Origin: Synechocystis sp. PCC 6803 substr. PCC-P
GTDB lineage: Bacteria > Cyanobacteriota > Cyanobacteriia > Cyanobacteriales > Microcystaceae
NCBI RefSeq assembly: GCF_000284455.1
Contig: NC_017039.1
Location: 1-32,000, forward strand
DNA length: 32,000 nucleotides
Direction: 5' to 3'
A model generated the notes under the pieces. It had not been told where the DNA came from. It was given only the letters and a program-made list of their open reading frames with translations, and did not search any database. The translations under genes were made by a program, and so were the position numbers. This document shows, piece by piece, positions 17,853 to 29,030 of this stretch (within the stretch, counting starts at the first letter, position 1; the number at the start of each line of letters is the position of its first letter).

Positions 17853-20393
17853 TTACCACTCAAATGCATAGCCAATGCGGAGAAATCGTCCCCGGGCGGC
17901 GGCATTACTCAACTCGTTGGGCTGGAGTTGGGACACCACCGGAAAGTAGTCAGTGTTTAACAAATTAGCAATGCCAATTTCCAGTTTCCCAGGGCCAACA
18001 TTGATCCTACTTATGTAGTCCAGGGTGACATAGCTACTGACGGGGAGCTGGCCAAAAACAGTGTTATTGCTAAACACATCACGATCGCCAGAATAGAGGA
18101 GTTGTAGCCGGTTTTGCCAACCGGGGGTGGTTTGGTGTTGTACATAGGCTGTGAGCTTCACCGGTGCAATGCGAAAACCATCGAGGGGAGTATAGTTGCC
18201 GGTGTTCAAGCGGTCAATTTCGCCGGCGGACAAGCTAAATGTGCCCCCCAACTGCCAACTTTCCCCCACCCGGGCATCCATGGTGGCTTCCACTCCATAA
18301 ACCCGTTCCGGTGCTCGCAAAATTTCCCCTGGAGCCGTGAAGGTCGTGCCCAAATCAGAGGAATTATAAAACCCCGCCAAAGAAAAGCGGAGATTTTGCC
18401 AATTGCCCCGCACACCAATTTCGTAATTGTTGACCCGCTGGGCTTCCGGTTGCAGAGTGGCTAGGGAAAAGCCCGCAGGGGCATTACGAAGCACTAGGCC
18501 CACGTCGGCTAGGGAAAAACCTTGGGCAAAGCTGGCAAACAAACTGATGTTATCGGTGACATCTACTACTCCCCCCAGGTTAAAAAGCGTTGCATCGTAG
18601 CTTAAGTCACCCCCTTGGACTGTATTGCCGCCCAGGGTAGTGAAATCATCCACCGACAGGCCCACTTGTTCATGGCGGATGCCCCCCAGTAGGGTGAGCC
18701 AATCGTTAGCCCGCCAGTTCAATTGGCCGAACAATCCCAGGCTGTCTTGGTTGAGAGATGGAACCCAAGTCCTTTTACCAGTATTGCGATAGCTTAAACC
18801 GCCACTGCTATCAAAAGTAACTGGATCAAAAATGTTCACTGGCTGAGCGGTACTTTCATTGTTGTAGTCCGCTCCCCACAGTAGGCGCAGATTTTTTTCT
18901 CCCGTTAGGGGGGTGTCCAGTTGTAGTCTGCCGCCCCACTCGGTGGAGTCAATTTCAGACTGAAAAATACTATTGCCCAAGCTAACGGAGGCTCGGCCGT
19001 CGAAAGGGAAAAACCTAGTCAGATAATCACGATAGTAGATTTGTCCCTTAAGGTTGCCATTGAGGACGTTACTGTGGCTGTAATCAAGGCTGACTACGGT
19101 GTTATTGCTGGTTTGGGGGGTATCAAGGTCCAGCCCGTCAATCGCTTGGGATCTCTGTCTACCGGCGATCGCCGTAATACTAGGATCAACGGTGAAATCA
19201 GTGTTTTGGGTGGCTTGAAAATGATTAATGGTAATTTGCAGGCGCTGTTCGTCAGTCATGTTGATGCCCAATTTACCCAAAACATTAAAGCTATCAGTGT
19301 CCGATACTCCTCCTTGGCCATTGGGATCGGGGGGAATGCGATTACCTAAGGCGTCAAAAAATCCCCCAACGGATTCATAGGATGCGGTGAAAGCGTAGTC
19401 AGCATAGTCAAGGGTTCCGCCCACATATTGTTCCACCATCCTCCCTAGGCTGTTGGATACACTGTCAAAATCGGTGTTGATGGCTAGGCGGGTGCTGGCT
19501 AGGAAGGGCTCAGGGGCAGGACCACGGGTGATGATGTTGATTACTCCTCCAGTGGCACCATCCCCGTAAATGGCCGTTGGCCCCTGGATCACTTCAATCC
19601 GTTCAATGGCACTGGGAGCAATGGTTTGCAAATCTCGGAAGGCATTACGGTTGGTGGTTTGGGGCACACCGTCAATCAAAACCAAAACGTTACGTCCTCG
19701 CAAAGCCTGGCCAAATTGACTGGCACTCCCGGTGCTGGGGGCTAAGCCTGGCACTAGTTGACCCAAAATATCCGCCAAGGAAGAGTAAACCTGGGTTTGT
19801 TGCTCAATTTCTGCCCGTTCAATTACCGTTACCGACCGGGGAATGTTAGCGATTTCCTCCTCTGTACGGGTGGCGGAAACCACAATTTGTAGGGCCTCAC
19901 TTTCCTCTATCTCGGCGGTTGTCCCGGCAACCCCTGGTCGAATCAGCAATTGTAACCCTTGCGAGTTAGGCTTTACTTCGGCTTCCGGTGGCCCATTTAC
20001 CCCCGTGATAGCTAAGCGCACTTGGTTATCGGTCATTTGGGTAACACTGACAAACGCAATGTCCGCAGTGGGGCTCACTTCTTCAAACCCCTGGCCCCCA
20101 GGTAAGGCCATCAAAGTATTGGGAAGATCAATAATTAAGGCATTGCCCACCGTTTGTAGGTTCGGAGAGGCGATCGCCCCTCCCGCTGTCACCAAAATAA
20201 TTTCTAACCCTGGCCCCGATGGCTCTAGACGCACTTCCTGCACTTGTACCAACGATGTCCCCTGATCCAGTTCCACTGTCACAGATGGGGATGGCTCACT
20301 AATAATTTCTTGAGCCCCCAGGGGCATAGCCATCGTTTCCATCACTATTCCAAGGGCGATCGTCCAGCCAAATCGTACTAATCTTGTTTTCAT
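17853..20393 (-). CDS. iutA: TonB-dependent ferric-siderophore outer-membrane receptor (IutA-like) with N-terminal extension
   Basis: Contains a plug (TonB-box-like LQIVVSATRTEEE; IERIEVIQGPTAIYGDGATGGVINIITR), a long beta-barrel and a terminal aromatic ...RIGYAFEW. I place the start at ATG 20393 (signal peptide MKTRLVRFGWTIALGIV...), preceded by GGAGG 7 nt upstream. The ORF-track GTG 20408 lies inside that SD. Recalled as sll1206. Confidence 0.9.
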   Translation of the reverse strand: MKTRLVRFGWTIALGIVMETMAMPLGAQEIISEPSPSVTVELDQGTSLVQVQEVRLEPSGPGLEIILVTAGGAIASPNLQTVGNALIIDLPNTLMALPGGQGFEEVSPTADIAFVSVTQMTDNQVRLAITGVNGPPEAEVKPNSQGLQLLIRPGVAGTTAEIEESEALQIVVSATRTEEEIANIPRSVTVIERAEIEQQTQVYSSLADILGQLVPGLAPSTGSASQFGQALRGRNVLVLIDGVPQTTNRNAFRDLQTIAPSAIERIEVIQGPTAIYGDGATGGVINIITRGPAPEPFLASTRLAINTDFDSVSNSLGRMVEQYVGGTLDYADYAFTASYESVGGFFDALGNRIPPDPNGQGGVSDTDSFNVLGKLGINMTDEQRLQITINHFQATQNTDFTVDPSITAIAGRQRSQAIDGLDLDTPQTSNNTVVSLDYSHSNVLNGNLKGQIYYRDYLTRFFPFDGRASVSLGNSIFQSEIDSTEWGGRLQLDTPLTGEKNLRLLWGADYNNESTAQPVNIFDPVTFDSSGGLSYRNTGKRTWVPSLNQDSLGLFGQLNWRANDWLTLLGGIRHEQVGLSVDDFTTLGGNTVQGGDLSYDATLFNLGGVVDVTDNISLFASFAQGFSLADVGLVLRNAPAGFSLATLQPEAQRVNNYEIGVRGNWQNLRFSLAGFYNSSDLGTTFTAPGEILRAPERVYGVEATMDARVGESWQLGGTFSLSAGEIDRLNTGNYTPLDGFRIAPVKLTAYVQHQTTPGWQNRLQLLYSGDRDVFSNNTVFGQLPVSSYVTLDYISRINVGPGKLEIGIANLLNTDYFPVVSQLQPNELSNAAARGRFLRIGYAFEW

Positions 20394-20480
20394 GTCACGT
20401 CCTCCCACACGTCAGTTACTTGTTGCAAATCTTTCTTGATTGGCTAGGAAAATTAGTGTAGATAGTTGTCTCTGGCCTTG

Positions 20481-20520
20481 TCTATCCAAAAAACGGTCAC
20501 GTTGATCCAAAAACGGACTT
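20481..20520 (-). promoter_or_regulatory. Tandem direct repeat (2 x 20 bp, core ATCCAAAAA(A)CGG[A/T]C), candidate PchR operator of the receptor promoter
   Basis: Plus strand reads tctATCCAAAAAACGGTCAC / gttgATCCAAAAACGGACtt, with CGG triplets 20 bp apart (20494 and 20514). The repeat lies between the AraC gene stop and the receptor start. A possible -10 TACACT (20460-20455, minus strand) puts the proximal repeat at the -35 position. Confidence 0.45.
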
Positions 20521-20526
20521 TGAGGC

Positions 20527-20558: not shown

Positions 20559-20614
20559 CTAATTTTCTTTGTTTGGGTAGATGGAAATCCTCTGGCTTTA
20601 ACCGGGAGAGACTA

Positions 20615-21595
20615 TCAATTACTCAGCATCCACTGTTTAGGGCTGACACCAAACTGTTTGCGAAACGCCGCGGAGAAGTGGCCTAAGTGGCTATAACCCA
20701 CGTTGTTAGCGACTTCGGCGACAGTGTAATTGCCCTGGGAGAGCAGATCTTTGGCCTGGTGAAGACGTTGTTGGGTCAGATAACCGATTACAGAGGTGCC
20801 AAACAGTTCCCGAAAACCACGGCGGAGGGTACGATCACATAACCCCACCTGCTGGGCCAACTCCAAAACGGAAGGAGGGCTTTCCAGTTGGGCAACTAGT
20901 CTGGCTCTCGCTTCGTAGATCTTCTCAATTGTTTTTGGTTTCAAAGTGCCAGAAAATGGAGAAGAATTTTGGTCGGCCATAATGCTATGCAATTGAAGGG
21001 CGAAAAGTTCAAACACCTTGGCTTGGAGAAAAAAACGTCGCGTCACTCCGTGAAATGGACATTGGAGCATCTGCTGAGCTACTGTCCGCATTTCAACCGT
21101 AATGGAGGGAAACCAAGCCATTTTCCACTCATCCTTTTTGAGTAAAGCTTGGCCTAGGGATAGGGATTGCCCAACTAAAAATTGTTCTAAAATTTGGGGT
21201 TCGAGGTGGACGTTAATGCCTTCTAGGTGGCCCAATTGGCCATACCGTGCCACATAACCAGGGGAAAGGCCACTCCCGGATACATAACCCTTCTTTGTCT
21301 CCAGAGTTGGATAGGTTTCCTCATAATCAACGGTCCCCGACAATAGGACGGTGAACTGTACTAAATGCTCGTGTACCGGTACTTTCAGTGCCCAGGGCCG
21401 GGTAAATTCCTTGTTGATCAAATCCAACCAAACCCCAGGGGAAAGTTCCAAGCAGCGGGTACGGCCATGGCCCAGGCAAGCGGGCAGCCAGCGAATGGTT
21501 TCAAAACTGTCAACTGGAGTGGTGGTGTAATACTCAGGTTCAAAGGGAATTTGACAAAGCTCATGGTAGTCGGACTCGGAAAGAAGTAGGGTCAT
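20615..21595 (-). CDS. pchR: AraC-family transcriptional regulator, PchR-like
   Basis: 326 aa with a C-terminal double HTH (LELAQQVGLCDRTLRRGFRELFGTSVIGYL...AEVANNVGYSHLGHFSAAFRKQFGVSPKQW). It is a close paralogue of the regulator at 27990-29030. Recalled as sll1205. Confidence 0.9.
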   Translation of the reverse strand: MTLLLSESDYHELCQIPFEPEYYTTTPVDSFETIRWLPACLGHGRTRCLELSPGVWLDLINKEFTRPWALKVPVHEHLVQFTVLLSGTVDYEETYPTLETKKGYVSGSGLSPGYVARYGQLGHLEGINVHLEPQILEQFLVGQSLSLGQALLKKDEWKMAWFPSITVEMRTVAQQMLQCPFHGVTRRFFLQAKVFELFALQLHSIMADQNSSPFSGTLKPKTIEKIYEARARLVAQLESPPSVLELAQQVGLCDRTLRRGFRELFGTSVIGYLTQQRLHQAKDLLSQGNYTVAEVANNVGYSHLGHFSAAFRKQFGVSPKQWMLSN

Positions 21596-21837: not shown

Positions 21838-23121
21838 CTAATCATCCCCACGTTGATAAATCAATAGACCCCATAGCCCCAATAGAAATGCGAGCACTCC
21901 ACAGTTCACCATTAAGAATGCCATGCCGCTGCCTGGGGGAGGTCCAAAAATTTCATTGATAGGTAGGATTAAAAAGTTACTCAAGTGAGTCAGCATTACC
22001 GATATCTGATTAGCTAAAATTCCTGCGGCCAATCCAGATAAACTACTGATAACAGTGCCGATCAAATAATCTGCAGCCAATACTCGGCCTTGTATTTCCC
22101 GTGCAACTTTCTCATACCAAATTGCTGTATATGAACTGGTGATTAAGGGACTTGGTAGTGATGCACCAACGTTAGCTAGTAGCCAAAATTTTGGTTGGGC
22201 AATCAGTCCCATGGCCAATCGACTGAATCCATTGATTATAAAGCCAATAAAAATACCAGTTGTTCTTCTTTTGAAGCCTCCCCAAATACTACAAATAGTT
22301 CCTCCAACAATACCCCCCACTCCTCCGATGGCCACAATAATCCCTAAAATCTCAGTGTTTCCTCCAGTTTTTGCTAGAATCATAGGCTGGTAAATTACTT
22401 CAGTGATTCCTTCTACAAAGCTAAACAATGAAAAAATGATCAATATCTTTGATAAATTTGGATGGTTATAGATATATTTAAGTCCAAAAAATATATCGTC
22501 AACAAAATTTTCTTTCAATCGTACAACAAATAAAGTTTGGTTGGTGATTTTAGGAGATTTAATTCCGAATGCTATTGGTAGAATCAAGATCGTTATAGCG
22601 GCGATCATGAACGTTGTCATGTCAATTATTGTGATGCCAGTTAGCCCCATCACAGGAAATAAGATTCCAGCCAAAGCGGGGGCAACAATTCCGGCGCTAT
22701 ATGCAGTAATGGCTCCCATACTACTAGCACGAGCATGGTGTTGATAAGGAACAATTAAAGGGACCAGGGTAATATAACTAAGGGTTTGAATGTTACCAAA
22801 ACAACCAATAATAGATGCAATCAGATATATATACTTAACATTAAGAATCTGTAAAAAAGCTAGGATTCCCACAGAAAATGTACATACAGCAGAGCCGATA
22901 TCGCTAACAATTAGCAATTTTTTGTGAGAAAAATAATCAGTAAGGATACCAGATAAAGGTGTAATGATAATTTGCGGGAGCTGATAAAAAACTAAAATCA
23001 AAGCCACTGACATAGCAGAATTTGTCTTTTGCCATATCCATATAGTCAGAGAAAAATAAGTCATACCGCTACCAATAGACGACAGAGCCTGTCCCAAGCA
23101 AAGAGTGACAAAGGTCTTCAT
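21838..23121 (-). CDS. MFS transporter (EntS/macrolide-efflux-like annotation; transport direction unresolved)
   Basis: 427 aa with about 12 hydrophobic segments and a central hydrophilic loop around residues 185-225. AT-rich codon usage. It starts 17 nt after the upstream gene's stop. Recalled as sll1204. Confidence 0.88.
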   Translation of the reverse strand: MKTFVTLCLGQALSSIGSGMTYFSLTIWIWQKTNSAMSVALILVFYQLPQIIITPLSGILTDYFSHKKLLIVSDIGSAVCTFSVGILAFLQILNVKYIYLIASIIGCFGNIQTLSYITLVPLIVPYQHHARASSMGAITAYSAGIVAPALAGILFPVMGLTGITIIDMTTFMIAAITILILPIAFGIKSPKITNQTLFVVRLKENFVDDIFFGLKYIYNHPNLSKILIIFSLFSFVEGITEVIYQPMILAKTGGNTEILGIIVAIGGVGGIVGGTICSIWGGFKRRTTGIFIGFIINGFSRLAMGLIAQPKFWLLANVGASLPSPLITSSYTAIWYEKVAREIQGRVLAADYLIGTVISSLSGLAAGILANQISVMLTHLSNFLILPINEIFGPPPGSGMAFLMVNCGVLAFLLGLWGLLIYQRGDD

Positions 23122-23138
23122 TTATTTTTGTAAATTAA

Positions 23139-24104
23139 TTATTTATCAATTTCTTTTAAGTAGCTGACACTATACTGCTTGACAGAAATAAGTTCATCTC
23201 CTGAATTTCTAGCAGTCATCACTGACCCATTGACTTCAACTCTTGCAAAATAAGCTCCTTTAACTTTATCGGGAGAAATAAAATCAAATTGAACCTCTAC
23301 CCAATTGGGATCATGCTGATTATCATCCATGTTCAATATTTGAGCTGATTTTTGATAATTTAACCATTGCCAACCTCGTTGAGTCCAAATTTCACGCTCA
23401 ACAATCTGGGCAAATTTTGTTACGCCTACCCAACCTCGATAAAATTTATAAAGTTGTTTAACTTGACCTTCTTGCCTTACCAGATTATCTAAAACTTCAG
23501 ACTCAAGATGTCCCCAAACTTGCCCATTTGGAAAATCAATTAAAGTCGGAGCAAACTGATGTCCCCCAAAATGAGAGCAGCGCCATATTCTTAAATTTTT
23601 TGATGCATATTTTTGTCGTAATTGTTTATAAATAGGATAACCAAATCTCGAACAAGCCACATCAATGTTTCCATGAGTACATACCATCATATCTCGATCA
23701 ACAACATCTGACAGTTTATAGTTACGAAAATTTTCTAACTCTGGAGATTGATAACATAAATTTTTGATAAGATCCCACCTTTGATCATCAGGAACTAAAT
23801 ATTCTTCTTTTATAAAACTGGAAAAGAGCAAATTAAACTTTTGGTAGTGAATAATACGACTAAATCCTGATTGAGAATACTCGTGATCTGAGGCGATCGC
23901 CATTGGAGATACTTTAACTCCTTGATCAGAAAGTTGATGAAAAAGATCATGAATTGGTTTAAGAATGGGGTCATGATGAAAGCGTTCCTCTGTCCAAGGT
24001 TGGGGTAATTCCATAATTAACCAACGATCACTTGAATTTGCTGTGCCGATAGGATCTTCCCCGTTAGATTTGGAAATAACGGAACAAAATTGACAATTAA
24101 TCAT
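23139..24104 (-). CDS. Sucrase/ferredoxin-like (thioredoxin-like, putative [2Fe-2S]) protein
   Basis: 321 aa with no signal peptide. The N-terminal block CQFC...IGTANSSDRWLIMELPQPW is present, as are C-X8-C (VCTHGNIDVAC, residues 142-151) and H-X3-H (SHFGGH, residues 178-182). The start overlaps the upstream stop (ATGA 24101-24104). Recalled as sll1203. Confidence 0.8.
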   Translation of the reverse strand: MINCQFCSVISKSNGEDPIGTANSSDRWLIMELPQPWTEERFHHDPILKPIHDLFHQLSDQGVKVSPMAIASDHEYSQSGFSRIIHYQKFNLLFSSFIKEEYLVPDDQRWDLIKNLCYQSPELENFRNYKLSDVVDRDMMVCTHGNIDVACSRFGYPIYKQLRQKYASKNLRIWRCSHFGGHQFAPTLIDFPNGQVWGHLESEVLDNLVRQEGQVKQLYKFYRGWVGVTKFAQIVEREIWTQRGWQWLNYQKSAQILNMDDNQHDPNWVEVQFDFISPDKVKGAYFARVEVNGSVMTARNSGDELISVKQYSVSYLKEIDK

Positions 24105-25144
24105 GGTTTTTGATTGGTTAAGAGTTGTTTTTTTAATTCATTAAGATAAAGTTTTGTACCGAAAAAACCTGGTAAACCCGTGCATAGATAAGTTGGAATA
24201 TAATAAACACGATTTTCTCGACTTGCTTTCATTGATTGTGTTATTGCATTTTCTGACCACTGTTGTTGTAAATTAGATAATTGATGCTCAGTAAAATTTT
24301 GTCTACTTTTTGATTTATTGAATTCTTGAAAATTATAACCTAAGATAATAATTGAATTGGCATTATTTAACTTAGGAAGAGATTCTAAAGAAAGGGGCAG
24401 TCTTGAATTTGTAGATGTACCTGCTCCTGGTAAAGAAACTAATTCAAATCCCAATTCTTCAATTAGAGAGCTACAAAGATCTTCATTATTGGCAATAGAC
24501 AATTCCTGTAAATTTTGAGCATGAAGTAGAAGCATTTTGGGGTATCCTGCAACAATTTTGGAAAATTCCTGCTTTGCTTTTTCAATTTCTTGCTGAGTTT
24601 CTTGTAAAAGTTGTTCGACTTTTTCTTCTTGCTTAACAGCCTGGGCAATCTTCTCTAGATTTTCAGTAGGTTCATTCCAAGATAACATTAAGGTAGGTGC
24701 AAGTTGAGAAAATTTTTGATATTCATTTTTATTATGATCAGGACTCAAAATTAAATCAGGTTTTGCTTTAAAAATTCCTTCTAACGAAGGCATGTAAGCA
24801 ATTCCTACATTGGCAATGGGTTTATTAATATATTGTCCCAAATAAGGAATTTGCTCGGTAGGATGATCATAATCTTCTTTATGAAAAGCAATGTGATCTG
24901 CATAGGCAATAGGTTGAATGTTTAACGCTAGTAAAGGTTCTAATAAATAGGGACCAAGTACAACAACTCTTTGAGGAATTCCACAGATTTCAGTTTCTCC
25001 CATTTTATGCTCAATTATCCGGCAACCTTTTTTATCTGATTGTTGTAGATGTGAAGATCGATCTATGTTTGTATTACAAGAAGTCAAAAGAGACGTCATA
25101 AAAATCATGAGAGTAGAAAAGTAATTTATCTTATATTTTTTCAT
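24101..25144 (-). CDS. Periplasmic siderophore-binding lipoprotein (FecB/FhuD-like)
   Basis: 347 aa with a signal peptide and lipobox (MIFMTSLLTSCNT). It has PBP class-III features (RVVVLGPYLLEPLLALNIQPIAYA; KPDLILS) and is paralogous to fecB at 16740-17687. Recalled as sll1202. Confidence 0.88.
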   Translation of the reverse strand: MKKYKINYFSTLMIFMTSLLTSCNTNIDRSSHLQQSDKKGCRIIEHKMGETEICGIPQRVVVLGPYLLEPLLALNIQPIAYADHIAFHKEDYDHPTEQIPYLGQYINKPIANVGIAYMPSLEGIFKAKPDLILSPDHNKNEYQKFSQLAPTLMLSWNEPTENLEKIAQAVKQEEKVEQLLQETQQEIEKAKQEFSKIVAGYPKMLLLHAQNLQELSIANNEDLCSSLIEELGFELVSLPGAGTSTNSRLPLSLESLPKLNNANSIIILGYNFQEFNKSKSRQNFTEHQLSNLQQQWSENAITQSMKASRENRVYYIPTYLCTGLPGFFGTKLYLNELKKQLLTNQKP

Positions 25145-25265: not shown

Positions 25266-27839
25266 TTAAAACTGAACCGAAAATGAGCCAATAATAATAA
25301 ATGGTTCACCAGGTTCAATTCCTGTTTGGTTACCACTGACTGCTCGGACGTAGTTAGCATTAGTAAAATTCCTCAAGTTTAGGGCAACTCGATATTTATC
25401 TCGTTGGTAAAAAATCGCTGCGTTTCCGATGATATAATCCCCCACTGTGTAGGTATTAGCTAAATCACCAAAACGATCGCCAACGTAATTAAAGCCAATT
25501 CCAAACCCTAGTCCTTGTAATGCCCCCGATTGAATTTCATAGGTCGTCCATAAATTCGCCATATTATAGGGAATACCAAATAGGCGGTTATCGACAAAAT
25601 TAGGATCTGTATCCTCGGTGACTTTTGCATTGATATAAGAATAGTTACCAATAATTTTCCAGCCGGGTAAAATTTCTCCCACAATATCTAGTTCAATGCC
25701 TTGGCTTTGTTGTGTTCCAATGGTAGATAAAAATAGGGGATTAACTGGATCGCTAACCGCTACATTATTTTTACTAATATTAAAATAAGTTAAGGTTGTG
25801 AGAAGTTGTTGCTCAAATAGTTCCGCTTTAACGCCAATTTCAAAACCTTCTCCCCGTTCTGGTTCTAGGGGATTGCCACTGATATCTATTCCACTATTGG
25901 GAGTGAAAGATTGGGAATAGTTGCTAAAGAAGCTAATTTCCGGAATTGGACGATATAGTAGGCCTATCCTTGGTGTAACTGCACTATCTGTTTGTTGTGT
26001 ATTTCCCCCTTGGTTAAAATCAGTTTGTAAATTATTTGTGTTTTGAGTGATAGTATCGTAACGAAGTCCTGCAACTAAAATTAGATTTTCTAATAAAGAA
26101 ACTTGATCCTGTAGATAAATTCCCAAACGATTGGAACTGGTAAAAGTATCGCCAAAAAGAGGTAAATCAGAGCGATTAGGTTTGGGAATTGCATTATAAT
26201 CGGGATCAAATACGTTAATTGACGTCGGACCACCAAAAAGCGTTAAAATACTCTCTTCAGACCAGTTATAATCAATTCCAGCTAAGAGCTCATGTTTAAC
26301 TGAGCCTGTAGAAAATTTACCGACAGCATTGGTATAGAAAGAATAGGAGCCCTGTTGTCCGTCCTGGTCAGCAAAGAAGCGGGTAACCGTTGGCCCATTC
26401 ACAATAGTAGGAAGAGCAATGACGTTATAGTCATAGTTGTAGCTCATATAGCGAAAAGCATTGCGTAACTTCCAATTTTCATTGAAGCGATGCTCTAGAT
26501 TATATCCAGCGCTAATAAAGTTTTTGTTAACAATATCACTGGGATCATTAATTACCCGCGAGCGGGGTACTGGTGCAACCCCATCTCCGAAGCTACTCAA
26601 GCCAAAGTCAGCAGGATTCGTGTCATTAATATATTCAACAGCTAAACTTAAATCTGTGTCGTCAGTGATAGCATAGGTGACAATGGGAGCGTAGGCAAAT
26701 CGTTCTAACGGTTGATTAAAGTCGCGAAAACTCGCTTCATTACTATAAACGCCGTTTAATCGATAACGTAAATTCCCACTGGGATTTAAACCACCTGAAA
26801 TATCAAAACGGGGACGAACTAATCCTTGATTACCTAATTGCACTTCGACTTCAGCAAACGGTTCATTAAGTGGTTTTTTCGAGTTTAAATTAATTACACC
26901 TCCGGGTTCAATTTGGCCATATAAAATAGAAGAAGGACCTTTGAGCACTTCCACCTGTTGTAGGTGAGAAACTTCCGTAATCCCTTGAAACCCTCCATAA
27001 AGTCGAAAACCATCCCTAAGAATAGGAACCGTATCACTAAATTGATTGCCAAATCCTCGAATACCAAAGATAGTTTCTCTTCCCCCTGTAGTACCGCCAA
27101 AAGTCACACTGCTAACATTTGTCAACACATCTTCGAGGGTGATGGCTTGTTGGGAACGAATTACTTCTTCTGAAACAACCTGTGCAGAAAAAGGCGTATC
27201 CATAATGGGAGTGTCAGTCCCCGTGGCAACCGAAGTGTTGGGAACGAAAAATTCTTGGACTGCTGCTTCTTCTTCTCGGGTAGCAACAATTTCGATTTCT
27301 TCTTCCGATTCCACTGTGTTAATTGGAGGCGTTAGGCTCAAAATTAAATTTTCGGATGATGGTATCACCTGAGCGGCGGGAACAGTACCATTGCCAGTTA
27401 CGGTAATGCGTAGTGAATTTGAACTTGTCTGTACGGCGGTTATTTGACTAATTTGCTCACTGGGATTCTCAACTATAAAATTTTCCCCATCTGGTAGCCT
27501 TAAAACTGCGTCTAAAATATCGATGATGAGAATATTGTCCTCACTAATAATTAAGGGTATTAGCTGGGATTGATCGGCCGTTTTTAAAATTAATTCAATG
27601 CCAGTTTGCGTATCTTTAAGTTCAATTTGGATAACTTCTTTAATTTGAGCTTGGGATATTTGCTGTTGCCAATTTTCTATCTTTACATTTGCCTTATATT
27701 CATTCTGTAACTCCTGATCTTCTAATTTTTCTTTTTCAGATAAATTACTTTCCCCTACTGATCCTAGGGCAACACCAGAATGTAAGGCCGTCAAACCAAT
27801 CAAAACGGCGAGCGAAGTCTGTTCCAAAATTTTGATCAT
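25266..27839 (-). CDS. TonB-dependent siderophore receptor (FhuA-like) with N-terminal extension
   Basis: Contains a plug (EIEIVATREEE...; VEVLKGPSSILYGQIEPGGVINLNSKKP), a barrel and a terminal ...GSFSVQF. I place the start at ATG 27839 (MIKILEQTSLAVLIGLTALHSGVALG), preceded by GGGGAG. The ORF-track start is GTG 27857. Recalled as sll1409. Confidence 0.9.
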   Translation of the reverse strand: MIKILEQTSLAVLIGLTALHSGVALGSVGESNLSEKEKLEDQELQNEYKANVKIENWQQQISQAQIKEVIQIELKDTQTGIELILKTADQSQLIPLIISEDNILIIDILDAVLRLPDGENFIVENPSEQISQITAVQTSSNSLRITVTGNGTVPAAQVIPSSENLILSLTPPINTVESEEEIEIVATREEEAAVQEFFVPNTSVATGTDTPIMDTPFSAQVVSEEVIRSQQAITLEDVLTNVSSVTFGGTTGGRETIFGIRGFGNQFSDTVPILRDGFRLYGGFQGITEVSHLQQVEVLKGPSSILYGQIEPGGVINLNSKKPLNEPFAEVEVQLGNQGLVRPRFDISGGLNPSGNLRYRLNGVYSNEASFRDFNQPLERFAYAPIVTYAITDDTDLSLAVEYINDTNPADFGLSSFGDGVAPVPRSRVINDPSDIVNKNFISAGYNLEHRFNENWKLRNAFRYMSYNYDYNVIALPTIVNGPTVTRFFADQDGQQGSYSFYTNAVGKFSTGSVKHELLAGIDYNWSEESILTLFGGPTSINVFDPDYNAIPKPNRSDLPLFGDTFTSSNRLGIYLQDQVSLLENLILVAGLRYDTITQNTNNLQTDFNQGGNTQQTDSAVTPRIGLLYRPIPEISFFSNYSQSFTPNSGIDISGNPLEPERGEGFEIGVKAELFEQQLLTTLTYFNISKNNVAVSDPVNPLFLSTIGTQQSQGIELDIVGEILPGWKIIGNYSYINAKVTEDTDPNFVDNRLFGIPYNMANLWTTYEIQSGALQGLGFGIGFNYVGDRFGDLANTYTVGDYIIGNAAIFYQRDKYRVALNLRNFTNANYVRAVSGNQTGIEPGEPFIIIGSFSVQF

Positions 27840-27905
27840 TTTTTGTGCTCCCCACACTTACTGATAATTAATGGATATATTCTAGGGGAAAGCCAAAATG
27901 TATTT

Positions 27906-27947
27906 CTTTGTAGGACGGACTTTTTTCTTTGTGAAACGGACTTTTTA
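27906..27947 (-). promoter_or_regulatory. Perfectly tandem 21-bp direct repeat (17/21 identical), candidate PcrR operator of the receptor promoter
   Basis: Plus strand reads CTTTGTAGGACGGACTTTTTT (27906-27926) / CTTTGTGAAACGGACTTTTTA (27927-27947). The repeat lies between the AraC gene stop (27990) and the receptor ATG (27839). A possible -10 TAGAAT (27884-27879, minus strand) puts the proximal repeat against the -35 position. Confidence 0.5.
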
Positions 27948-27989
27948 GATCATAACTTTTCTTCTGTCAGAATGAAAAACTGCTTACTA

Positions 27990-29030
27990 CTATTTGTAGA
28001 AAATTGTCTTTTGATGGGTTTTGGGGCTAACTCCAAATTTTCGTCTAAATGCCATGCAAAAAGCTTCTGGATTGGTATATCCTACCCTTTGTGCTACCTG
28101 GGCCACGGATAAGTTATTATCTGCTAATAATTGCTGAGCCTGTTGCATGCGATAATTATACAGATAACCAAATACGGTCGTGCCAAATAGTTGACGAAAG
28201 CCTTGTTTTAGCTTACGCTCATTTAAGCTAACTTGTCGAGATAACTGTGCCAAGGAAGGAGGATCAAGTACTTGTTTGACCAAGATTTCCTGTGCATATT
28301 TCACTCTTTCTAAATCGTCTTTTTTTAATTGAGATGCTTTTTTTTCTGATTTAGTAGCATCCATACAATTAAATTGCCAGGCAAATAATTCTAAAGCCTT
28401 ACTTTCTAAATAAATTTGTTTAATTATGCCTTGATAGGGACATTGATAAATTTGCTGTAATATCTCAGTGACTTTAAGTGTGTTTTTACCTAGTGATAAG
28501 TGGAACTTTAAATCACGATCGCCTGTGATTAATTGGTTAATTAAGCTAGGAGCAAAGTTTTCACTTTGATAAAAACAACTGAAATAATCAACAGGAGCAT
28601 AAACACTAACTAATTTTATTTCAGTATCACATGGCCATTGCTCGAGTTCTGATAAATTAGGTAAATGATAAAGATAATTTCTGCCCGCTAATTCTGTATA
28701 TTTTGGCTCAATTTCTTTAGTTTTAAATGTTTCTACTACTGAATTTCCTGTAAGATAAAAGTGAGCAACTAGAGGAAAATTCTTCTTATGATTCCTCTTT
28801 AAGTACATAACTTCGGCAAGTTGTACCTGAATAATTTCAATTGTTAAGCCGTCCCTCAACTGGATAGATCGATTATACCCTTTACCCAGTCTTTGCGGTA
28901 AATTTATTATGGTTTCATTGTCTTGAAAATGTACTGTAAATTCATCAAAATCAACAATTTGTCTTGAAGTAGTTGGTTGATTTGGTAAAACAATCGTGGT
29001 GTTGGGATCAAATACATTAACATCTTTCAT
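27990..29030 (-). CDS. pcrR: AraC-family transcriptional regulator, PchR/PcrR-like
   Basis: 346 aa with a C-terminal double HTH (LAQLSRQVSLNERKLKQGFRQLFGTTVFGYL...AQVAQRVGYTNPEAFCMAFRRKFGVSPK). It is colinear with the regulator at 20615-21595 but in much more AT-rich DNA. Recalled as sll1408. Confidence 0.9.
   Translation of the reverse strand: MKDVNVFDPNTTIVLPNQPTTSRQIVDFDEFTVHFQDNETIINLPQRLGKGYNRSIQLRDGLTIEIIQVQLAEVMYLKRNHKKNFPLVAHFYLTGNSVVETFKTKEIEPKYTELAGRNYLYHLPNLSELEQWPCDTEIKLVSVYAPVDYFSCFYQSENFAPSLINQLITGDRDLKFHLSLGKNTLKVTEILQQIYQCPYQGIIKQIYLESKALELFAWQFNCMDATKSEKKASQLKKDDLERVKYAQEILVKQVLDPPSLAQLSRQVSLNERKLKQGFRQLFGTTVFGYLYNYRMQQAQQLLADNNLSVAQVAQRVGYTNPEAFCMAFRRKFGVSPKTHQKTIFYK

Follow-up and report, generated by a model that had tools for sequence, protein, structure and literature searches.

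A 21-bp direct repeat between sll1408 and sll1409 of Synechocystis sp. PCC 6803 as a predicted operator of an AraC-family regulator of siderophore uptake

At the araI1-araI2 site of the Escherichia coli pBAD promoter, AraC occupies two half-sites arranged as direct repeats, about 21 bp apart from center to center, of which the proximal one overlaps the -35 position. Each half-site is read by one dual helix-turn-helix (HTH) domain of the AraC dimer, and proteins of the AraC/XylS family activate transcription in the class II manner. In this work, we describe a 21-bp tandem direct repeat located between the AraC-type regulator gene sll1408 and the TonB-dependent siderophore receptor gene sll1409 of the cyanobacterium Synechocystis sp. 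PCC 6803. The stretch of DNA analyzed comprises the first 32 kb of the chromosome (NC_017039.1, positions 1 to 32,000) and is called the window throughout. In its computed geometry, with 21-bp direct repeats and a proximal unit at the predicted -35 position, the sll1409 box resembles araI1-I2. Unlike in AraC, the N-terminal domain of Sll1408 matches no curated family, a cupin arabinose-binding domain was not detected in it, and the sequence of the box is unrelated.

Several AraC-family regulators of siderophore uptake are closer in function. Btr of Bacillus subtilis is a siderophore sensor acting at two direct repeats that adjoin or overlap the -35 of the feuA uptake operon; its proximal repeat is critical for activation, which the ligand enhances (Gaballa & Helmann 2011, PMC3333878). 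In contrast to Sll1408, Btr has 9-bp repeats and a C-terminal sensor domain resembling substrate-binding proteins, and the NCBIfam model of Btr matches only the DNA-binding domain of Sll1408 (33.8 bits, cut-off 900). Another example is FoxR/foxA of Salmonella, where the gene order is the same, with an AraC-like regulator encoded immediately upstream of a TonB-dependent xenosiderophore receptor, and where a direct-repeat motif and Fur control have been reported (PMC9804782). It differs in the organism group, in the box, and in the annotated -35 and -10 hexamers of the foxA promoter. PchR of Pseudomonas aeruginosa is the source of the names "pcrR" and "pchR", which sll1408 carries from database annotation only. 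As cited in Riediger 2021 (PMC8634477), PchR (Michel et al. 2005) is a Fur-controlled AraC-type activator that needs its ferric siderophore to recognize a conserved box upstream of receptor and biosynthesis genes. Synechocystis makes no siderophore, so the targets are uptake genes only.

The regulators Sll1205, Sll1408, and Slr1489 of Synechocystis, whose role was stated as unknown in Riediger 2021 (PMC8634477), were named IutR1, IutR2, and IutR3 by Liu et al. 2024 (PMC11221513). Genetic evidence in that study showed that they activate receptor genes when iron is deficient and that tbdt3 (sll1409) depends on the iutR genes. Although the same proteins and genes are concerned, the text of that paper describes no 21-bp direct repeat; for binding sequences, it gives HOMER motifs from IutR1 chromatin immunoprecipitation sequencing (ChIP-seq), in the form of a figure (PMC11221513). 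Neither the box nor the recognition code proposed below is described in the literature that was searched. The mechanism is not conceptually new, and the kind of operator is classical (AraC I1-I2-, Btr-, and FoxR-like).

The direct repeat and its promoter geometry

The repeat is real. A preliminary description of this DNA had reported CTTTGTAGGACGGACTTTTTT at 27906-27926, followed directly by CTTTGTGAAACGGACTTTTTA at 27927-27947 with 17 of 21 identical positions, in a 150-bp spacer between the regulator and the receptor gene. Coordinates and letters proved exact, as did the spacer, which runs from the TAG stop (27990-27992) to the ATG (27837-27839). The best register of the repeat is 27903-27944, where 18 of 21 positions are identical. 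With Tandem Repeats Finder (period 21, 2.1 copies, 86% matches, score 67), it receives the top score of the window and is the sole period-21 array. Likewise, no other tandem pair of 21-mers in the 32 kb reaches at least 17/21 identity, and such pairs averaged 0.01 per window in 200 dinucleotide-preserving shuffles. When scored with the weight matrix described below, in a register shifted by 1 nt from the earlier one, the two units (Table 1) form a pair of 57.9 bits at 27905-27946. No other pair on either strand of the window reaches 25 bits, and the next-best single unit scores 18 bits. The half-sites are thus similar, directly oriented, and about two helical turns apart (period 21), as in AraC-type operators. 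The AU-rich hairpin suggested earlier for 27957-27978 did not hold up, with a folding energy of -4.3 kcal/mol (z = 0.6) and 145 of 200 shuffles folding at least as well. Additionally, nothing in the entire window reached the gathering threshold of any Rfam family, so the spacer holds no known RNA element.

The -10 hexamer TAGAAT, initially offered as a guess, is matched in related promoters at the same offset. TAnnnT stands exactly 20 nt past the proximal unit in 42 of the 45 distinct promoters and 21 nt past it in the other three, compared with 2.5% of shuffles; most of these related hexamers are TATCAT or TATGAT. On the numbering of the predicted transcription start, the box units span about -74 to -33. 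A consensus scan found no -35 match at the proposed promoter and no sigma-70 -35/-10 pair there; the single match, at 27978-27949, is at chance level. The view that the repeat extends to the -35 position fits these findings. Given a 17-bp spacer before the predicted -10 hexamer, the final bases of the proximal unit coincide with the -35 position, so that the box itself would occupy this position, as with class II activators. Judged from its sequence, the arrangement is that expected of an activator-dependent class II promoter, and sll1409 is probably the gene driven by it.

Published transcript maps are compatible with such promoters. The genes sll1404-sll1408 form a single iron-induced transcription unit that ends before sll1409 (PMC11221513; Kopf 2014, PMC4195498), while sll1206 is a separate unit, TU24, the most iron-specific of the genome according to dRNA-seq (differential RNA sequencing; Kopf 2014 Table 4, PMC4195498). 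These separate sll1404-sll1408 and sll1206 units fit promoters placed directly after the regulator genes. Iron limitation was imposed in that study by desferrioxamine B, and sll1206 responded with a condition-specific factor of 1138-fold, the highest in the genome (PMC4195498). Since desferrioxamine B is itself a siderophore, this factor may partly reflect siderophore-specific activation via Sll1205, beyond the lack of iron. Under the same treatment, sll1409 is absent from the top units (Kopf 2014 Table 4).

Conservation and covariation with the adjacent regulator

Relatives of Sll1408 are encoded at 78 cyanobacterial loci in our comparative set (one genome per species), and in most of them the regulator gene adjoins a siderophore receptor gene, as it does here. 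A receptor-sized open reading frame (about 500-900 aa) follows within at most 400 bp on the same strand in 54 of the 78 loci, and these spacers, together with two from the window, made up a set of 56. Without any motif being assumed, the best tandem self-match lay at an offset of exactly 21 in 45 of the 56 spacers (about 4% in shuffles) and at 20, 22, or 23 in seven further ones. An iterated weight matrix built from the 56 spacers yielded the unit consensus AAAAAGTCCGTTTCACAAAGA, with A1-3, T7, C8, C16, and A17-A21 as the most informative positions. The search for the motif in other cyanobacterial spacers, proposed as a check in the preliminary description, was thus positive: 50 of the 56 hold a 21-bp direct-repeat pair of at least 25 bits after the regulator gene. 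In 596 kb, both strands included, there were 84 such pairs, of which 82 lie on the regulator's strand. Nearly all begin between a few and about 150 nt past the regulator stop codon, and some overlap it. Boxes near-identical to that of Synechocystis occur in several Nostocales and other loci (e.g., AGAAAGTCCGTTTCACAAAGAAAAAAGTCCGTTTCACAAAGA). Conservation over cyanobacterial orders, combined with the fixed spacing to the -10 hexamer, excludes chance.

At L027, L029, L035, L037, L038, L056, and other loci, the distal unit starts at or overlaps the regulator stop codon, so that the receptor promoter is physically fused to the end of the regulator gene. Read-through transcription from the regulator gene would, in such fused loci, pass through the bound activator.

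The boxes also vary together with the regulators beside them. At variable positions, the two units of one promoter are more alike than units across promoters (0.78 vs. 0.59), a within-promoter likeness reached by none of 5000 permutations. Such likeness is expected if a single protein species with promoter-specific preferences reads both units. Raw mutual information was inflated by hypervariable linker columns; for this reason, only HTH columns were interpreted, by means of an explicit contingency listing and a tree check. In this listing (Sll1408 numbering), the residues at 272/273 go with box position 6: R-K with G (AGTCC), C-T with T (ATTCC), C/H/N/Y-K with C (ACTCC), and F-K with A, while Y-R accompanies CTTCA-type sites. 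Where residue 275 is N instead of K, the site reads GTCGG instead of GTCCG (C9 to G), with one exception, L006, which combines K with GTCGG. In the second motif, S-T at 325/326 goes with CAAAG, and C-N or S-N mostly with GCGCAG-type sites.

These residues fall where DNA contacts would be expected. In an ungapped alignment with MarA (PDB 1BL0), obtained from phmmer and MAFFT, residues 272, 273, 275, and 276 correspond to W42, H43, Q45, and R46, and residues 325 and 326 to T95 and R96; BLASTP of the Sll1408 DNA-binding domain against MarA returned no alignment. In the MarA-DNA crystal structure that Rhee and co-workers described in 1998, W42, H43, Q45, R46, T95, and R96 are reportedly the base-contacting positions of both recognition helices. 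On a neighbor-joining tree of the N-terminal domain only, each residue class is spread over two or three distinct positions, so the association does not go back to one inherited event. We infer that the first HTH reads the 5′ sub-site and the second HTH the 3′ sub-site 10 bp away. Taken with the conservation in 50 of 56 spacers, the covariation supports the earlier proposal of an AraC-type direct-repeat activator site, and it suggests that the adjacent regulator is the reader of the box.

The genome holds two further regulator/receptor pairs. The box downstream of sll1205 and upstream of sll1206 has the AGTCCG core in common with the sll1409 box and differs in its 3′ part. In line with this, Sll1205 keeps the arginine equivalent to residue 272, and its second helix, LGHFSA, goes with a 3′ sub-site GGAT(C/A). 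Among 46 metagenomic loci of the Sll1205 family, 15 have TAGAC, 18-23 nt, and TA[CG]A[CG]T in succession, compared with 0.3% of shuffles, and all 15 also carry the upstream repeat. The distal unit lies within the end of the regulator coding sequence in many Sll1205-family loci.

In Slr1489, F-T occupies 272/273, a type associated with T at box position 6, and the second helix is Sll1205-like; the slr1490 box joins ATTCC to GGATCA, the combination that the code predicts. The slr1489-slr1490 spacer was taken from the assembly of an engineered knockout strain (L141), in which slr1489 is interrupted at 5302-7071 by an rRNA adenine methyltransferase gene (erythromycin-resistance type) and a chloramphenicol acetyltransferase gene. 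TAnnnT is missing from its usual place in the slr1490 promoter, and the closest alternatives are TAAAGT, roughly one helical turn further off, or TACCGG. A Fur-like sequence, TTTGAGAATTAGTTGCA, follows this box. As far as their sequences tell, both pairs carry boxes consistent with the code.

These observations lead to a broader proposal, to which we give an even chance. The cyanobacterial IutR/PchR-like regulators may follow a modular code readable from sequence, in which residues 272, 273, and 275 set the 5′ sub-site and residues 325/326 with their neighbors set the 3′ sub-site, and which would insulate paralogous promoters within a genome from each other.

Proposed mechanism and the identity of the binding protein

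It is likely that the repeats are the operator of an AraC-family activator of siderophore uptake, belonging to the cyanobacterial PchR-like or "IutR" group, and that the likeliest binder is Sll1408, encoded immediately upstream. According to the literature, Sll1408 is supplied by the Fur-controlled unit sll1404-sll1408, which is induced by iron starvation. A regulator dimer would then place one DNA-binding domain on each unit, where the first HTH, around R272, K273, and K275, would contact the 5′ sub-site AGTCCG and the second HTH, around 325/326, the 3′ sub-site CACAAAG at a distance of one helical turn. Because the units have a period of 21 bp, both domains would sit on one face of the double helix. 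As the proximal unit ends at -35 and a -10 hexamer is present without a -35 hexamer, the bound activator would replace the -35 contact and, in the class II manner, recruit or activate RNA polymerase. As a result, sll1409 would be transcribed, and sll1202, sll1203, and sll1204 probably along with it; full activation probably requires a cognate ferric xenosiderophore.

Several points weigh against this assignment. In published gel shifts, the "sll1409 promoter" fragment was bound by IutR1 and not by IutR2 or IutR3 (PMC11221513 Table 2). The nearest sequence homologues of Sll1408 outside Synechocystis, in Geminocystis (about 61% identity), have a different gene order without a downstream receptor gene, and no box was found within 7.7 kb of them (e.g., L001, Geminocystis sp. 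GBBB08, 2725-3756), so that they supply no footprint at close range. Two sister strains of Synechocystis have the sll1408 orthologue as two separate reading frames of 239 and 104 aa (L139/L140 2501-3540; CP054306.1, CP063659.1), so that it is probably a pseudogene in both, and yet the box persists. These strains also keep the receptor gene, with the distal unit changed from GTCCG to GTCCA and the -10 hexamer from TAGAAT to TAAAAT; being 95% identical, they have diverged too little to be informative. Finally, the covariation is descriptive and correlative, with no rigorous phylogenetic correction.

The gel-shift result is the basis of the strongest alternative, in which the box is a functional AraC-type operator used in vivo by IutR1 (Sll1205) or by redundant IutR paralogues, and not by Sll1408. 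Primer mapping places the "sll1409 promoter" probe at 27858-28646; its 789 bp include the box and consist mostly of sll1408 coding sequence. The assays were carried out with long probes and without siderophore ligand (PMC11221513), and for these reasons the negative result weighs against Sll1408 only moderately. In the same series, the "sll1206 promoter" probe of the gel-shift and one-hybrid assays corresponds to 20597-20928, that is, the 3′ end of sll1205 plus 18 bp, without the sll1206 box and -10, but was reported to be bound by IutR1 and IutR2 (PMC11221513). The shift of a probe lacking the box means that these gel shifts may not report box-specific binding; the negative result for IutR2 nevertheless still stands. 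The slr1490 probe of Liu et al. 2024 contains the slr1490 box.

Redundancy among the paralogues would agree with the genetic data, in which single iutR mutants lose induction only partly, whereas in the triple mutant induction of the receptor genes is abolished (PMC11221513). Moreover, Sll1205 has the same arginine that tracks G6, and its own box has the same AGTCCG, which makes its cross-recognition of the 5′ sub-site plausible. Its second helix, however, differs from the PEAF(S/C)(T/M) class and goes with GGAT(C/A), not with CACAAAG, and across cyanobacteria the box variant follows the adjacent regulator. The target table of the IutR1 ChIP-seq lists sll1206 and sll1406, but not sll1409 (PMC11221513). 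We therefore consider it improbable that IutR1 or redundant paralogues use the box in place of Sll1408. The data could plausibly be reconciled if IutR1 cross-binds by way of AGTCCG, the sub-site that the two boxes have in common.

A phased A-tract or curvature (UP-like) element, stimulating the promoter without a sequence-specific activator, would account for the run of A5-6 that opens each unit, for the 21-bp period that phases these tracts, and for the strongly conserved A at positions 1-5. It would not account for the most informative positions beyond the A-tract (T7, C8, C16, and A19-G20 among them), for non-A positions that co-vary with the HTH residues of the neighboring regulator, or for the occurrence of the element almost only after these regulator genes, and we regard it as very improbable. 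We give just as little credit to a binding site of Fur or of some other repressor, or to a functionless local duplication. In their favor, the element lies in a Fur-controlled cluster, for which 11 Fur boxes are predicted (PMC8634477), and a lone two-copy repeat could be a duplication. Against them, the repeats are direct and have a G/C core, unlike the A/T-rich palindromes of Fur boxes; no E. coli-type Fur consensus match of at least 12/19 falls on the box; and the element is conserved over cyanobacterial orders at a fixed spacing to -10 and is hardly ever equaled in shuffles. By the E. coli consensus, matches of 12-13/19 are scattered all over this AT-rich DNA, with none on the promoter, and do not discriminate.

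In most related receptor promoters (L002-L075), a conserved A/T-rich palindrome lies about 10-45 nt past the -10 hexamer (e.g., GCTAATAAGAATnATTTGCATTAGC, TTGAGAAnnATTCTTAAT); in form it is similar to a 7-1-7 Fur box that overlaps the start site. The sll1409 promoter shows no more than a half-site of this kind, ATTATCA (27862-27868).

Genes of the locus and meaning for siderophore uptake

The features discussed are collected in Table 1. Along the minus strand, the order of transcription is sll1406, sll1407, sll1408, sll1409, sll1202, sll1203, sll1204, sll1205, and sll1206, and psbA2, speA, and ligA are located upstream. Sll1408 as encoded here does not differ from its PCC 6803 counterpart, whose record coordinates equal those of the window. 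The gene identities given in the preliminary description, a pcrR-like AraC-type regulator and a TonB-dependent siderophore receptor, agree with Pfam and NCBIfam matches. Residues 263-341 of Sll1408 match Pfam HTH_18 (E 2.2e-21) and HTH_AraC, in agreement with the AraC/XylS family, which is characterized by two HTH motifs in a C-terminal domain about 100 aa long; this domain of Sll1408 aligns to the DNA-binding domains of AraC, AdpA, XylR, GadX, and MarA in the PDB. No Pfam or NCBIfam model matches the first 260 aa, and no PchR model match is listed for the protein in NCBIfam. The sll1409 product matches Pfam AMIN, Plug, and TonB_dep_Rec_b-barrel and scores 364.7 bits with NCBIfam TIGR01783 (cut-off 223.5); among TonB-dependent siderophore receptors in NCBIfam, it is closest to FhuA and ferrioxamine receptors.

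Table 1. Features of the sll1408-sll1409 locus and of the other regulator/receptor pairs (window coordinates unless stated otherwise)
Feature	Coordinates	Strand	Remarks
Promoter-distal 21-bp unit	27926..27946	(-)	AAAAAGTCCGTTTCACAAAGA (gene-sense strand); 32.7 bits, best single unit of the window
Promoter-proximal 21-bp unit	27905..27925	(-)	AAAAAGTCCGTCCTACAAAGA; 25.2 bits; 3′ end reaches the -35 position
Predicted -10 hexamer	27879..27884	(-)	TAGAAT; starts 20 nt past the proximal unit
Predicted transcription start	27871..27873	(-)	About 7 nt past -10; placed from the -10 position alone
First HTH recognition helix of Sll1408, residues 270-276	28203..28223 (codons)	(-)	NERKLKQ; R272, K273, and K275 co-vary with box positions 6 and 9
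Second HTH recognition helix of Sll1408, residues 319-329	28044..28076 (codons)	(-)	TNPEAFCMAFR; 325/326 co-vary with the 3′ sub-site, CAAAG vs. GCGCAG
sll1406		(-)	Receptor
sll1407		(-)	Methyltransferase
sll1408 (pcrR/IutR2)	27990..29030	(-)	AraC-family regulator, 346 aa; name IutR2 from PMC11221513
sll1409 (tbdt3 in PMC11221513)	25266..27839	(-)	AMIN-Plug-barrel TonB-dependent siderophore receptor, FhuA-like
sll1202 / sll1203 / sll1204	21838..25144	(-)	Periplasmic binding protein / Suc_Fer-like / MFS; Pfam matches
sll1205 (IutR1)	20615-21595	(-)	Second AraC-type regulator
Paralogous box downstream of sll1205, upstream of sll1206	20480..20521	(-)	AAAGTCCGTTTTTGGATCAAC / GTGACCGTTTTTTGGATAGAC, 21-bp direct repeats
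Predicted -10 of sll1206	20455..20460	(-)	TACACT; TACACT/TAGACT at a fixed distance in Sll1205-family loci
sll1206	17853-20408	(-)	Second receptor
slr1489-slr1490 spacer box	L141 7891-7932 (outside the window)		AAAAATTCCAATTTAGGATCA / AAATATTCCCTCCACTGATCA; starts at the slr1489 stop codon

The uptake genes sll1202, sll1203, and sll1204 are probably co-transcribed with the upstream sll1409, and a transcription unit pcrR-fhuA1-fecB2-sll1203-sll1204 is given in Riediger 2021 (PMC8634477). According to the same paper, the sll1408-sll1204 block is an insertion in PCC 6803 relative to PCC 6714. In all three receptors of the cluster (sll1206, sll1409, and L079 6577-9063), an N-terminal AMIN domain precedes the plug; this fusion is exclusive to cyanobacterial TonB-dependent transporters according to a 2026 preprint (10.64898/2026.07.30.741596).

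Synechocystis PCC 6803 is the main cyanobacterial model, and its IutR trio was described only in 2024, without a nucleotide-level operator. With the 42-bp box and its fixed distance to the -10 hexamer, footprinting and promoter mutagenesis have precisely defined targets. The box would also account for the separate transcription units that sll1206 and sll1409 begin right behind regulator genes, and it flags a published "promoter" probe that misses the promoter. It also opens the way to regulon prediction for hundreds of unannotated AraC/receptor pairs and provides a route to orthogonal siderophore-inducible promoters in cyanobacteria. If the proposed reading is true, the published binding assignments for IutR2/tbdt3 and for the sll1206 probe would need revision, and Sll1408 would be the specific switch of sll1409, responding to its own ligand. 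The covariation listing suggests how paralogous siderophore systems avoid cross-talk; on the proposed reading, each regulator would be a dedicated sensor of one xenosiderophore instead of a redundant "global" iron activator.

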